Shown: positions 58,061 to 63,875 of the stretch, piece by piece
How the letters are laid out: every line of letters begins with the position of its first letter
Position numbering within the stretch: position 1 is the first letter of the stretch
Virus genome (UHGV): UHGV-0351052
Strand: one strand, 5' to 3'
DNA: 64,000 nt
Source of the DNA: a virus
Position numbers and translations under genes: made by a program
Notes under the pieces: generated by a model
Database searches by the model: none
Seen by the model: only the letters and a program-made list of their open reading frames with translations
Told to the model about the DNA's origin: nothing

Positions 58061-60238
58061 TTAGGCCGCAAGGGCCTTCATAGTTTTAGCGATTTGGGAA
58101 ACTTCATCATCACTTAAAGAGCTGCGATAACCGATGAAGTCAGAAACAATACGGAATTTCTTGGTAAACTCAGCAACCATTTTATCACTGTTTTTTGAAG
58201 CATTATTTGATAATACATCAAAAAGATTAGTTACTGTCCAGATGTCATGACCGATGGTATCTCTTCCACCATTAAAATATACACCCTGTAATGAACTAAC
58301 CATATTAGCAAGTCGTGTATATTCTTCAGAAACTTCATCTACACTGAAGTACTTCATCATAAAATCTAACTCAGGATACTTGATAATTTTATCAATATAT
58401 CGTTTAGCTGAACTTGAATAACCTACATACTTATCATAATCTACATCATCAAAAGCATCTACATATAAATCACGCAAAGCTTCAAAAATACATTGGCACT
58501 GACCGAGTTCTTTTATCTTTTTCTGCAAAAGCGGACGAATAACATAAAATTCATTAATGCCAATAAGATTAGCCATACGAATCAAAATATTCATAGATGG
58601 ATGACAAAGAGATGTAGTACCATCCATAGAGAAAATATCAGAACGATGCATATACGCTACATAACCAGTAATTTCATCTGCTTCTGATGTGAGCGTAAAT
58701 AATTCCTCTTTTTCCCAGCGCCCGTCTTTAATTTCAAACTTAAATGCTGTAGCAGCTTTAGGACGAGGAGCTTTACTTTTAACTACCTTTGGAATATAGC
58801 TTTTAACTAAAGCTTCAATTTCTGACAAATAATGAATGTTAACTTCATCACTTTCAAACATCGCCATAATATCAGGGAGTAAATCAATTTGCGATTCTAC
58901 TTCTGGATTAATAAACAGAAGGCGTTCGTTGTGATGAATATTCAAAGTGTTATTAAATTCACTATCATCTAACGCATGTGCTAATCCACGGACAATATTA
59001 ACACGATTTTTAATATTATCAATAACGATATTAATTTTTGTTGTATTAATACCAAACAGACGATAGCTTGATGCAACGGCTGAAGTTTCATGACTTTGCT
59101 TAATGCGCTTCAGTCGAGGGTCAAGATTTACTTCATACACAACCCCTGCATTACATAACTTACTGTCAGGTTCAAACATGCTCTGCATCTTTTTATATGA
59201 CAGATTTTTAGTCGTGAATTTGACTGAATTACTAATCATATAATCTCGAGCAGAATACCCCATCTTCATCAATTCACGATATGTGTGACGAGGAGATGTA
59301 GATTCTTTAAATCGTTTTACATCTTCATTAAATGCTTTCTCACTAAGCTCTTTAACTCGTTCAATAATATTTTTACGAGTACGATCATCCAGTGAAAGAG
59401 CCTCGCGAGATGGAGCAATATCAAGTGAACCCATTGGAAACTTAATGTAATTCACTTCATTGCGAATGCTTAGCCAGTTACGATCTCTAATAACACCATC
59501 GATAGGATAAACAATACCGCCATAGATAGCATATAATCCACCACGATCAGGCCAGTATCTTTCTGGATTTACGCCATAATAATCATCAAAATCCGGAAAA
59601 TAATCAATTTCGCGGTCAAGACCATTAATGATAGCCAAATCTTTGAATGGTCGCATGATATAAGAAACTTCATAAGCAAAGTTTCTAAAGTCTTTTTCTT
59701 CAACTGGAACTACGATTTCAATACCAGTTTTATCATCTGGACCCATTTCTTTTACGAATGTAGGTTTAATCTGTGGACCATCACCATCCATGTAAGCTAC
59801 ATAACCACGAATTTCACCTTTATGATACGAAGTAATACTAAACGTATCAGTATAACTAAATGGAGATTTAGAACCTAAACCAAATCCGCCAATGAAATCG
59901 TTAGATTCAGCCTTAGATGAACTGAAGTATGAATTATACAGACCAGGAGAATTATCATCACCCTGAATATCAAAATCACTCATACCCGGACCAAAATCTC
60001 GACAAACAAATCGCGGGTCTAAACGTCCTGGAACTTGTATGATAAATTTTTCAGGATTTCCATTGAGAGCATGGGCATCAATCATGTTAGTAATCAATTC
60101 ACGGACTACTGCGCGAATCTTGTTTGTATACAAATCAGATGACAGAATTTTAAATACTTTAGGAGATGCAGTAATACTAAATGCTTTTGATTTAGAACCA
60201 TTACCAAGAATTGTTTCTTTTTCAGTGGTGATAATCAT
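58061..60238 (-). CDS. rIIA: rIIA protein
   Basis: 725 aa; synteny. Confidence 0.9.
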
Positions 60239-60248
60239 AATTTCCTCA

Positions 60249-60452
60249 TTAATTCATATTACGCTTAATAACTTCAGCAACTTCTAGTAGCTCATCTTTA
60301 GTTGCGGTGTCGGATTGAATTTTATCTCTAATATCTTTAAAGCGGTTTTTAAATTCTTCGGCTTCTCCCATATCGAAAAAGCGTTGAATGATTCTATATT
60401 CTCGATGAACTGCTTTATCAAAAAGTTCTAAATTTACTTTATATGATTTCAT
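60249..60452 (-). CDS. hypothetical protein (67 aa)
   Basis: ORF with early promoter upstream. Confidence 0.55.
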
Positions 60453-60477
60453 TTCAATATCCTCATTTGCCCAATTA

Positions 60478-60507
60478 ATTATACCACATCCTTGTGGTAA
60501 AGTAAAC
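60478..60507 (-). promoter_or_regulatory. sigma70-type early promoter (-35 GTTTACT, 17 bp, -10 TATAAT)
   Basis: consensus -10; overlaps 3' end of gene 60. Confidence 0.5.
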
Positions 60508-60851
60508 TACTGACTCATCCATTCTTTACGAAGGTCAGCATTATCTCCCATGAGCATTTCAAAAAGCTCTTTCCAGTTCTCAGGAAGTTTAACAACATCA
60601 TATACTGGATTTTGAATCATCTCACGATATTCAGATTTTTCCAAAGAGCCAAGTCCTTTAATATAACGGATGCTATGTTTAGGTAGAGCATCTTTGGCAC
60701 TCTCATATTCAGCGACTGTATAAAACCATTCTTGTTTTTTACCGACCTGAGCGATGATTACAGGAGTTTTGACAAAGCGAATTCGTCCTTGCTCAAACAA
60801 TTCTGGCCAATTACTAAAAAACCCGAGCAGAGAAGGATAAATAGAACCTAA
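60507..60851 (-). CDS. 60: topoisomerase II subunit gp60, codons 47-160 (after translational bypass)
   Basis: frame LGSIYPSLLGFFSNWPELFEQGRIRF... continues from landing site; matches T4 gp60 as recalled. Confidence 0.85.
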   Translation of the reverse strand, partial: LGSIYPSLLGFFSNWPELFEQGRIRFVKTPVIIAQVGKKQEWFYTVAEYESAKDALPKHSIRYIKGLGSLEKSEYREMIQNPVYDVVKLPENWKELFEMLMGDNADLRKEWMSQ

Positions 60852-60901
60852 TCCAATAATCTCTTAATTATGAGGTATTTCTATAGATAGCCCGAAGGCT
60901 A
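60852..60901 (-). promoter_or_regulatory. 50-nt translational bypass (coding gap) element of gene 60
   Basis: take-off GGA, in-frame UAG, hairpin UAGCCUUCGGGCUA, 50-nt gap ending in landing GGA. Confidence 0.8.
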
Positions 60902-61039
60902 TCCATCGTGATCTGCGTCTGTCATAATAGCGACATTCGCATAGTTCATTGAAGAGGATTTAATAGAACGACGAACATTGTTCTGCAATTTATATTTTTT
61001 CATATCAACGCTAGAAGAATCAATTTTTACAAATTTCAT
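60902..61039 (-). CDS. 60: topoisomerase II subunit gp60, codons 1-46 (before bypass)
   Basis: MKFVKIDSSSVDMKKYKLQNNVRRSIKSSSMNYANVAIMTDADHDG then UAG. Confidence 0.85.
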
Positions 61040-61838
61040 TATACACCTCATAGAACTTTTCATCAGGAATCCAACCGCGTTTAAATTCATTAAATGCTCG
61101 GCCGAATAATTTTGAATTCACAGTTATATTATTAACTGATTTCCATTTAGCAACTCCCGTTCGTTTATAATGATCGGGGTCATATTTCGTGACGTACCAT
61201 TCATATAAATTTGGTATTAATTTTACAGCCTCTGGATTTGTCGCTGATTTATTATACCATGGTTTCGCTTTTTCAAGTTCAGCTGCTTTTGCAGTAGCAG
61301 CAACAGTATTTCCAATACCAACTAATTTTTCAGCTTTAATGCGTGGATCATTAACATGAAGACGAAAAACTTCGCCTTTTTCATTTTTAAAGCATGTCAT
61401 GCCTTTAATTCCAGGAAGCTTAACACCTTTATTAACACCGCACCATTCCTTTGGGTTAAATGATCCTTTAATTAATAAGGCGCATTTACCCGATTTAATA
61501 CTTCTCATTAAAACTTTATCTTTCATAAAGTTTTTTGACCATTCAGATACTGCTCTTTGATGGTAAATTCTAGCAATTTCATATAATTTACTAGAACGTA
61601 AATATTTTTCAGTGTTTAACATTCTATTCATCGCATATGCCATTTCACGATTACGATGAATTTTATATAGTAGAAAATGTGCTAAAAAGTGTTCACGAAA
61701 AGTCAGTTTCACCAAATTTTCTTTATCATCAGAACCTCCCATTGATCTTGGAAGGATATGATGAATTTCACCCTTAAATTTAGAAACGCGGGTTTTACCC
61801 CGCACTATTAAGTCATTATAGATTTTTTCGTAATTCAC
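61020..61838 (-). CDS. mobA: HNH homing endonuclease (mobA-like)
   Basis: 272 aa; HNH motif EIHHILPRSMGGSDDKENLVKLTFREH; inserted between genes 39 and 60, overlapping both. Confidence 0.8.
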   Translation of the reverse strand: MNYEKIYNDLIVRGKTRVSKFKGEIHHILPRSMGGSDDKENLVKLTFREHFLAHFLLYKIHRNREMAYAMNRMLNTEKYLRSSKLYEIARIYHQRAVSEWSKNFMKDKVLMRSIKSGKCALLIKGSFNPKEWCGVNKGVKLPGIKGMTCFKNEKGEVFRLHVNDPRIKAEKLVGIGNTVAATAKAAELEKAKPWYNKSATNPEAVKLIPNLYEWYVTKYDPDHYKRTGVAKWKSVNNITVNSKLFGRAFNEFKRGWIPDEKFYEVYNEICKN

Positions 61839-63366
61839 CTACTGTTATCCATTTACCATTAATCTGTACCTCATCATTTTCATTTACGATAATTGTATCG
61901 CCATTTAGTTCGAAAGTAAACCACTCGCCATCTTCTTTTTCTTCAAACGCCTTTTCACCAAGAACTAGACCAGTGATTGCGCAAATATCAAATAGTTCTT
62001 TGTTTTTAAGCATATCTGCATAAGACATACCCCAACTGTTGAGAACTTTACCACGCAATGGATAACCACCATGAAGTTCTTTATCGCGAACATCAATAAG
62101 ATATCCGATAGCAGAATCACCCTCAGTCAAGAAAAGAGTAGTATCAGCATCTTTACCACAAAGGTTCGCTTTGATATGTTTATGAACCTTAGCTTTAGAA
62201 GCCTTTTTAGCTGCTTTAGTTTCTGCTGCTTTTTCTGCCGCCAATTTACGAGCTAATGCTGCTTCAATGATTGGCATCAGAATTGCTTCATTATTTAGAA
62301 TAGCACGTGAAATCTTTTTAGCGTCAAGTTGAATATGACTACGAATTTCGCCAAATGGAGAAGTCAAACGCTCTTTAGTCTGAGAATCAAATCGCATGTT
62401 TTTCATATCACGAACAAACATAACGATAGTCAAACATTCTTTGACACGTGCTTTAGTCACATCAATTTTGAACTTACGTTTGATTTGTGGAATAAGGTCT
62501 TCACAAATATCATCCATAACACAGTCAATGTGATGGCCACCATTCTTAGTATGAATGTTATTAACGTATGTTAATTGACGAAAACCATCCGGTGAACGAC
62601 CAACTGCAATAGAACAATTTTCTTGTTCTTGAACAATAGCATGCTCATCATATTGGCGTGCATATTTCTTAAAATTGCCCTGAACCTTTTTACCATTAAA
62701 GGTAAATTGAATATCAGGATAAACTACTGCAAGTGTCTGGAGACGATCTAGTGTAATGTCAAGATAAACTTGGGACAGCTCATTAGTTTCAAATGACATA
62801 AAATCAGGAATGAAAGTAACACGAGTTCCTTTCCATTTTCCAGGAATATCTTCCCATGATTTATTTTCCATGCCATTTGAACAACGAACTACAATATTAT
62901 TTTGACCATCGCCAGTTTCACCAACAAACATCACAGAAAAAATGTTTGTCAAACTAGAACCAACACCATTCATACCGCCAGTGACGCGTTCTTTATCATC
63001 ACCAAAGTTACCACCTGCTTTTGGAATAGTCCAGGCAGCAACAGGACCAGGAATTTCTTCACCGGTAGGTGTTTTAACCATCGCTTGTGGAATACCGCGA
63101 CCGTTATCTTCAACTGTTACTTGATTGTTTTTAATAGTAACATTAATTTTATTTGCGAATTTAAACTTAGTACGAATACCTTCATCTACTGAGTTATCGA
63201 TAATTTCATCAATAAGCTTAACAAGACCAGGTACATACTGAACACTTTCCCATTTACCAAACAGAAAGCGCTCATGCATTTCATTAGCGGAAGAGCCAAT
63301 GTACATGCCGCTACGCTTTTTGATATGTTCAATATCGCTCAGAATTTTAATTTCATTCTTAATCAT
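61816..63366 (-). CDS. 39: DNA topoisomerase II large subunit gp39 (GyrB-like ATPase)
   Basis: 516 aa; ATPase N-box EIIDNSVDE and G-loop GGMNGVG. Confidence 0.95.
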   Translation of the reverse strand: MIKNEIKILSDIEHIKKRSGMYIGSSANEMHERFLFGKWESVQYVPGLVKLIDEIIDNSVDEGIRTKFKFANKINVTIKNNQVTVEDNGRGIPQAMVKTPTGEEIPGPVAAWTIPKAGGNFGDDKERVTGGMNGVGSSLTNIFSVMFVGETGDGQNNIVVRCSNGMENKSWEDIPGKWKGTRVTFIPDFMSFETNELSQVYLDITLDRLQTLAVVYPDIQFTFNGKKVQGNFKKYARQYDEHAIVQEQENCSIAVGRSPDGFRQLTYVNNIHTKNGGHHIDCVMDDICEDLIPQIKRKFKIDVTKARVKECLTIVMFVRDMKNMRFDSQTKERLTSPFGEIRSHIQLDAKKISRAILNNEAILMPIIEAALARKLAAEKAAETKAAKKASKAKVHKHIKANLCGKDADTTLFLTEGDSAIGYLIDVRDKELHGGYPLRGKVLNSWGMSYADMLKNKELFDICAITGLVLGEKAFEEKEDGEWFTFELNGDTIIVNENDEVQINGKWITVGELRKNL

Positions 63367-63435
63367 CACTTATCCTCGTTTGGTTTCGGGAATATTATAC
63401 TCCGGTAATCATAAAGCTAAAGGCCCGAAGGCCTT

Positions 63436-63696
63436 TTATTTAAAACGAATAGTCGAATCCTTGAAGAATAGTCCAGAACATACTGTTCCTTCTACTTTCT
63501 GTCCAGTAGGTCCAATAGCACGAAATCCAGTATGCTGGAAATCATTTTCAGAGCAACCGAACCAGTTATATCCAGTGATTTCAATATTAGTAAAACCACT
63601 TGAAGACAAAACTTTGGTTGCATTATCAGCATCAGTACATCCTATTAAAGACACTGCTAATACTAATGCTGCAATAGAACGATTAACATATTTCAT
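63436..63696 (-). CDS. putative lipoprotein (86 aa)
   Basis: signal peptide with lipobox LIGC. Confidence 0.55.
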   Translation of the reverse strand: MKYVNRSIAALVLAVSLIGCTDADNATKVLSSSGFTNIEITGYNWFGCSENDFQHTGFRAIGPTGQKVEGTVCSGLFFKDSTIRFK

Positions 63697-63698
63697 AA

Positions 63699-63875
63699 TT
63701 ACCCTTTAAGCAAGTCGTAAAATCCACCGTTCACATGCTTAGGAGCGGAAACTAACCGAATAGCAATCCGATGACAATCAGGACATACATCAGTATCCCT
63801 TTCAGAAATTTTCTTGATTTTTTCGTATTCTTTTGCACAGTCTTTGGATTGACATTTATAATCATAAAGAGGCAT
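63699..63875 (-). CDS. zinc-ribbon protein (58 aa, CxxC...CxxC)
   Basis: hand-translated ORF MPLYDYKCQSKDCAKEYE...VCPDCHRIAIRL; below track size cut-off. Confidence 0.45.
   Translation of the reverse strand: MPLYDYKCQSKDCAKEYEKIKKISERDTDVCPDCHRIAIRLVSAPKHVNGGFYDLLKG

Follow-up and report, generated by a model that had tools for sequence, protein, structure and literature searches.

The window, i.e. the whole stretch of 64,000 nt of the UHGV virus genome UHGV-0351052 that was analysed, carries on the minus strand of its last 6 kb the genes 39.2, 39.1, 39, mobA, 60, rIIA.1 and rIIA, which is the order found at the start of the T4 map. Over 24 kb (40000-64000), the best match in the phage collection was Shigella phage SHFML-26, with 95.8% identity in four pieces, and the 3-kb topoisomerase region was 98.6% identical to T4. 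Its sequence identifies the phage as a T4-like mosaic member of Tequatrovirus that is distinct from T4.

Read directly from the sequence, the mobA ORF at 61020-61838 on the minus strand is intact and comprises 272 codons from a GTG start. No earlier start is possible because an in-frame TAG directly precedes this GTG, and the next in-frame methionine is aa 33, from which the protein would lose its catalytic HH pair. The stop codon of gene 39 at 61816-61818 gives an overlap of 23 nt with mobA, and the ATG of gene 60 at 61039 gives a second overlap of 20 nt. The annotation of T4T (HM137666) contains the same three CDSs (39, an 819-nt mobA and 60) together with the same 50-nt bypass feature. The first-pass annotation had described a 272-aa gene lying between genes 39 and 60, overlapping each by about 20 nt and open throughout; the placement and the overlaps proved true, and the intact frame is borne out by 272 codons of which 271 encode the same residue as in T4T MobA. 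Its position, 61020-61838, was right for the endonuclease ORF but falls short of the whole mobile element, which spans 60843-61948.

For genes 39 and 60, the starts were set by homology and by the annotation of T4T. The mechanical ORF list overextends both neighbours, gene 39 by one codon (upstream GTG, 63366-63369) and gene 60 to the ATG at 61090; the latter start, if accepted, would raise the overlap with mobA to 71 nt.

Boundaries and parts of the inserted element

The phage fFiEco06 possesses gene 39 as a single uninterrupted ORF of 605 aa. In the blastn comparison with this phage, an alignment of 97.5% identity ended at 61949 and resumed with 98.9% identity at 60842, and the 1106 nt between these breakpoints replace 64 nt of the uninterrupted gene (Table 1). 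The breakpoints were taken from blastn, as a global MAFFT alignment of carrier and empty alleles put the large gap in the wrong place. Comparison with a phage carrying a fused 39/60 gene had been proposed as a check in the first-pass annotation, and the 605-aa gene of fFiEco06 indeed gave clean breakpoints at 61949/60842.

Table 1. Positions of the genes, gene segments and RNA features of the split topoisomerase locus
Feature	Coordinates	Strand	Basis or remark
Complete MobA mobile element, 1106 nt in place of 64 nt of uninterrupted gene 39	60843..61948	minus	blastn vs fFiEco06
Ancestral part of gene 39, gp39 residues 1-473 (ATPase, transducer, TOPRIM start)	61949..63366	minus	Collinear with fused 605-aa protein
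gp39 43-aa C-terminal extension (FEEKEDGEWF...GELRKNL) and stop	61816..61947	minus	Without counterpart in fused protein
mobA, 272-aa HNH homing endonuclease	61020..61838	minus	GTG start; T4T CDS, PHROG 655
Hairpin GCGGG-GUAAAA-CCCGC, possible attenuator (inferred)	61788..61803	minus	mobA codons 12-17, 12 nt past gene 39 stop
HNH catalytic motif, residues 24-54 (E-IHHILPRSMGGSDDKENLVKLTFREHFLAH)	61677..61769	minus	Homolog alignments, PDB sequence matches
Gene 60 Shine-Dalgarno GAGG	61046-61049	minus	Within mobA 3' end; 6 nt upstream of ATG 61039; sequence read directly
Gene 60 segment 1, 46 codons, ending with take-off GGA (60902-60904)	60902..61039	minus	Protein collinearity
50-nt untranslated bypass gap	60852..60901	minus	UAG 60899-60901, landing GGA 60852-60854; T4T 'translational bypass' position
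Gene 60 segment 2, 114 codons and stop, C-terminal TOPRIM part	60507..60851	minus	Pfam TOPRIM_C match

The element supplies the 43-aa tail of gp39, the mobA gene in another frame, the 50-nt bypass gap and, for gene 60, both the ribosome-binding site and the initial 46 codons. Upstream of it, gene 39 matched the Pfam families HATPase_c and DNA_gyraseB. Segment 1 of gene 60 consists of a unique N-terminal extension of 30 aa followed by 16 aa that are an element-borne copy of the replaced topoisomerase segment; at the nucleotide level, 46 nt within the insert (60903-60948) are a 76% identical copy of part of that segment. The first 9 nt of gene 60 segment 2 (60843-60851) are still element sequence. 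For related elements, sizes of 1097-1106 nt, a 64-nt deletion, a 43-aa tail (CTE) and a 46-codon leader were described by Manning and Atkins, as well as 9 extra element nucleotides beyond the gap in the T4 clade (bioRxiv 10.1101/2022.08.31.505936), and the size and layout measured here match their values.

Two proposals made at first reading are thus substantiated. The split of the topoisomerase II large-subunit gene by an insertion is established by the breakpoints and the protein collinearity, and the view that endonuclease and bypass form one inserted cassette agrees with a single block of 1106 nt that is missing as a unit from near-identical relatives.

The MobA endonuclease

In the profile search, the mobA product matched PHROG 655, "homing endonuclease", over residues 1-265 (E 2.5e-57), and it was identical to T4T MobA at 271/272 residues, with A169 here and T169 in T4T as the sole difference. 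Because of this match and this identity, the ORF at 61020-61838 is considered a genuine gene and not a chance ORF. Identical MobA proteins, with the GTG start counted as Met, are present in several other phages (e.g., vB_EcoM_112 and LH2). The protein database search returned about ten full-length relatives with 48-99% identity, and similarity to the PHROG 655-type MobA orthologs spans the full length, the MobA-specific C-terminal region included, whereas more than 100 proteins matched the N-terminal third only, many of these carrying NUMOD DNA-binding modules. This division of relatives reflects the modular build of homing endonucleases.

Across two alignments, with 13 and 24 homologs, residues H26, H27, N41, H50 and H54 showed no or almost no variation, and the HH...N...H...H motif of the HNH superfamily was found in MobA. 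In a sequence search against solved structures, the HNH domains that aligned with EIHHILPRSMGGSDDKENLV...H came from a group II intron maturase, Cas8f-HNH and McrA, and the PDB entries whose HNH domains aligned to the motif were 6me0, 8ydb and 6ghc. The AlphaFold model (mean pLDDT 81.7) placed a strand at 24-27, a strand at 42-45 and a helix at 47-61 around the motif, and its fold matches to HNH proteins in the PDB were weak. The gathering score of Pfam HNH (PF01844) was narrowly missed (20.1 bits vs 21.4, E 7e-4, over the 20 residues 24-43), a shortfall that in our judgement counts for less than the motif and the phage-specific profile. The HNH-type endonuclease claimed at the outset is therefore confirmed by PHROG 655, the invariant motif and the sequence matches to HNH proteins in the PDB; frameshifts or stops and a lack of HNH similarity on search had been named as findings that would speak against it, and the searches show HNH similarity while the frame is intact.

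Two minor matches were set aside. The sole NCBIfam match, to IscB, was trivial and confined to the motif. MobA residues 60-112 (61503-61661) resembled the C-terminal domain III of baseplate gp6 below threshold (Pfam E 8e-4, 19.8 bits vs a cut-off of 27; PDB 9f4a, E 0.18), and this likeness was judged spurious, being probably a chance similarity of helical segments.

Translational bypass and signals in the mobA transcript

The bypass region has the layout GGA|UAG-44 nt-GGA and interrupts the TOPRIM motif, DADHDG|LGS. Joining across it restores the topoisomerase frame and yields a gp60 of 160 aa collinear with the fused homolog, in that its last 130 residues correspond to positions 476-605 of that homolog, after a unique stretch of 30 residues at its start. 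A take-off stem-loop with a UUCG loop (60883-60906) reaches -14.7 kcal/mol and is more stable than any other local hairpin of the region, and the nascent-peptide signal KKYKLQNNVRRSIKSSS is present upstream in gene 60. The stem-loop also occurs in seven other elements; the Stupor version differs in sequence and has a GCAA loop, and the UAG-CCUUCGGGCUA take-off hairpin was seen in several distant MobA elements. The take-off, landing, stem-loop and nascent-peptide features of a gene 60-type programmed bypass are thus present, and ribosome hopping is predicted. Rfam matched no family, bypass or other, within 60400-63500.

It has been reported that mobA is promoter-less, starts with GUG and overlaps gene 39 by 23 bp (PMC2988022). 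In the present phage, the T4 late-promoter box TATAAATA was found nowhere within 45-64 kb, and scans for sigma-70 promoters and terminators returned fewer sites than shuffled sequence, with no convincing sigma-70 site before mobA. The absence of the late-promoter box in 45-64 kb and of convincing sigma-70 sites fits promoter-less expression of mobA by read-through from gene 39. The gene would have no promoter of its own, and its translation, from the gene 39 mRNA via the overlapping GUG start, would probably be weak. When the RNA around the mobA start was folded, the GUG was not enclosed in any significant structure (z -1.2 to -1.5).

Shortly behind this start lies the small hairpin listed in Table 1. 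We surveyed 2.2-kb regions of eight MobA elements with a sliding 36-nt energy scan, and in six of the eight, one of the three most stable hairpins was located 16-60 nt past the mobA start. Hairpins at the equivalent place occur in the elements of Proteus, Acinetobacter, Aeromonas and Shewanella phages, with unrelated stem sequences; in five other elements they lie at about 738-760 (L005), 731-760 (L006), 727-762 (L007), 741-776 (L008) and 761-796 (L009). The stems of fHyAci03 and AS-gz differ by one compensatory change from A-U to G-C. By the energy scan, the hairpin is absent from both Gelderlandvirus elements. Lacking a clean U-tract, the mobA hairpin does not qualify as a canonical terminator, and the terminator scan did not call it. 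Comparable structures in the 5' ends of mobE and segF have been described as weak terminators (PMC2988022); a mention of the one in mobA was not found in a literature search of partial coverage. We tentatively suggest, as a possibility that we regard as rather doubtful, that the 5' hairpin is a conserved regulatory part of MobA elements, either attenuating read-through or translation or protecting the 3' end of the gene 39 mRNA. A regulatory hairpin in mobA, if true, would parallel the 5' terminators of mobE and segF.

Distribution, spread and known counterparts

About 500 phage records matched the flanks of the element at 95% identity or more, and 42 of them cover the insert, i.e. a carriage of 8%. 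The non-carriers align in two pieces with 64% query coverage and have one continuous 605-aa gene 39, so the expectation stated at first reading that many relatives possess a fused gene was well founded, as only 42 of some 500 close relatives carry the insert. A full-length MobA ORF at 99% protein identity or more is present in about 40 records. More distant full-length homologs (37-60% identity) were found in phages of Salmonella, Escherichia, Proteus, Acinetobacter, Shewanella and Aeromonas that belong to other genera; each homolog is situated between N- and C-terminal topoisomerase fragments and followed by an ORF of about 45 codons and a gap. This layout of topoisomerase N-terminal part, endonuclease, short ORF, gap and topoisomerase C-terminal part was recorded in seven phages (Gelderlandvirus, Bragavirus, Lazarusvirus, Tulanevirus and an unclassified Shewanella phage).

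The element differs from T4T at 4 of 1106 positions, and the surrounding 3.6 kb at 81 of 3595 (Fisher p = 3.7e-6), so that its divergence from T4T is about one-sixth that of the flanks. This trough was assessed by comparing 60400-61950 with 59000-60400 and 61950-63700. For a non-essential gene, it is most simply read as recent shared ancestry via lateral transfer, and together with the 8% carriage it provides population-level support for an element that is still spreading.

Considering these results, we regard it as almost certain that the ORF is mobA, a free-standing HNH homing-endonuclease gene driving a 1.1-kb selfish cassette in the TOPRIM-coding part of the topoisomerase II large subunit, and no sequence evidence contradicting this explanation was found. 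T4 MobA introduces a nick into one strand of its target, and mixed infections lead to its high-frequency inheritance (Edgell, Gibb and Belfort 2010, PMC2988022). On the basis of the literature, a plausible model can be proposed in which MobA, during mixed infection, would nick the uninterrupted allele of a relative near the place of the donor's 50-nt site, and recombinational repair of the nicked recipient would then copy the cassette in. The carrier allele would stay uncut because the 50-nt insert breaks up the MobA target. By the account of Bonocora et al. 2011, as given in bioRxiv 10.1101/2022.08.31.505936, the insert lies about 20 bases from the nick site and protects the carrier, and nicking is blocked by this 50-nt insert and not by the substitutions in the duplicated segment. 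The added tails have been described as forming a pendant of the TOPRIM domain, with a presumed role in fragment assembly (PMC11461880); in the proposed model, the two tails would allow gp39 and gp60 to reassemble into an active enzyme with gp52. The activity of the present MobA copy, suggested at first reading from the intact frame, is itself predicted from the published work on T4 MobA and from near-identity to it.

It might be argued that an intact ORF could still encode a non-functional or domesticated endonuclease within a frozen, vertically inherited insertion. Decayed or lost endonucleases are known from some lineages that keep the bypass (Manning and Atkins, bioRxiv 10.1101/2022.08.31.505936), and mobA is labelled a pseudogene in the original T4 record. 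However, every catalytic residue is kept in the present protein, the roughly 40 full-length ORFs agree at 99% protein identity or more, the ORF is intact in all later T4 records, and the published crosses showed high-frequency inheritance (PMC2988022). The element is also far less diverged than its flanks, contrary to what a decaying vertical relic would display, and we consider a dead remnant very improbable.

That the split 39/60 arrangement is ancestral, with the single gene of the relatives produced by deletion and fusion, has a precedent in the secondary re-fusion after element loss in an Aeromonas phage clade (bioRxiv 10.1101/2022.08.31.505936). This polarity is scarcely credible here, however, because the uninterrupted allele shows no trace of either added tail, the element holds a diverged (76%) duplicate from the replaced 64-nt segment, the carriers are a minority nested among 97-99% identical non-carriers, and the split falls within DADHDG, the metal-binding motif of TOPRIM, which the fused relative has unbroken. 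The motif is also continuous in cellular GyrB/ParE.

An inserted and mobile mobA cassette, as preferred here, is already known from the reports of Edgell et al. 2010, Bonocora et al. 2011 and Manning and Atkins 2022. The closest counterpart is the T4 MobA/50-nt bypass cassette (Bonocora, Zeng, Abel and Shub, PNAS 2011), with the same gene, site and architecture; the overlaps, GTG start, take-off and landing codons and 50-nt gap are identical to those of T4T, and the differences are A169 instead of T169 and another Tequatrovirus background. The cassette is a textbook oddity, in which a selfish endonuclease splits an essential enzyme gene whose function is kept through subunit reassembly and a 50-nt ribosomal hop. 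The window reveals no new principle and adds one more natural T4-like phage with an intact, near-identical copy.

MobE of the T-even phages and Aeh1, a free-standing endonuclease associated with nrdA/nrdB, shares the same HNH module. Like MobA, it nicks one strand, is promoter-less and overlaps the upstream gene (PMC2988022), and Aeh1 MobE splits nrdA and adds tails (bioRxiv 10.1101/2022.08.31.505936; PMC2988022). In contrast to MobA, it has another C-terminal region and target gene and no bypass, and its similarity to MobA is limited to about the first 100 residues. A stretch of 57 nt at the HNH motif (61708-61764) shows 86% DNA identity to mobE of T6-like phages, which points to a putative common origin of the nuclease module in the two, or to its exchange among mob genes. 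I-HmuI and I-BasI are likewise HNH nickases that home via repair of the nicked recipient (PMC2988022), but they reside in self-splicing group I introns that keep the host gene intact; unlike them, MobA depends on split-protein reassembly and translational bypass. The sequence search gave no significant match of MobA to solved structures of the I-HmuI/I-BasI group.

The 443 nt downstream of the element contain 4 differences from T4T, and gene 39 and rIIA diverge by about 2.5%; the pattern looks like a recent transfer with co-conversion that would reach toward rIIA.1.

As for the T4 records themselves, the laboratory T4 MobA has been described as pseudogenised (bioRxiv 10.1101/2022.08.31.505936). 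This status may be an artefact of errors in the 1980s sequence, since later T4 records carry the intact ORF. The original records (AF158101, NC_000866 and X06220) have 11 extra bases and several substitutions and are annotated "mobA pseudogene" and "60.1", the compared mobA intervals being 2021-2817 in AF158101 and 2021-2839 in T4T, and at least 10 later T4 records have an intact mobA of 272 codons.
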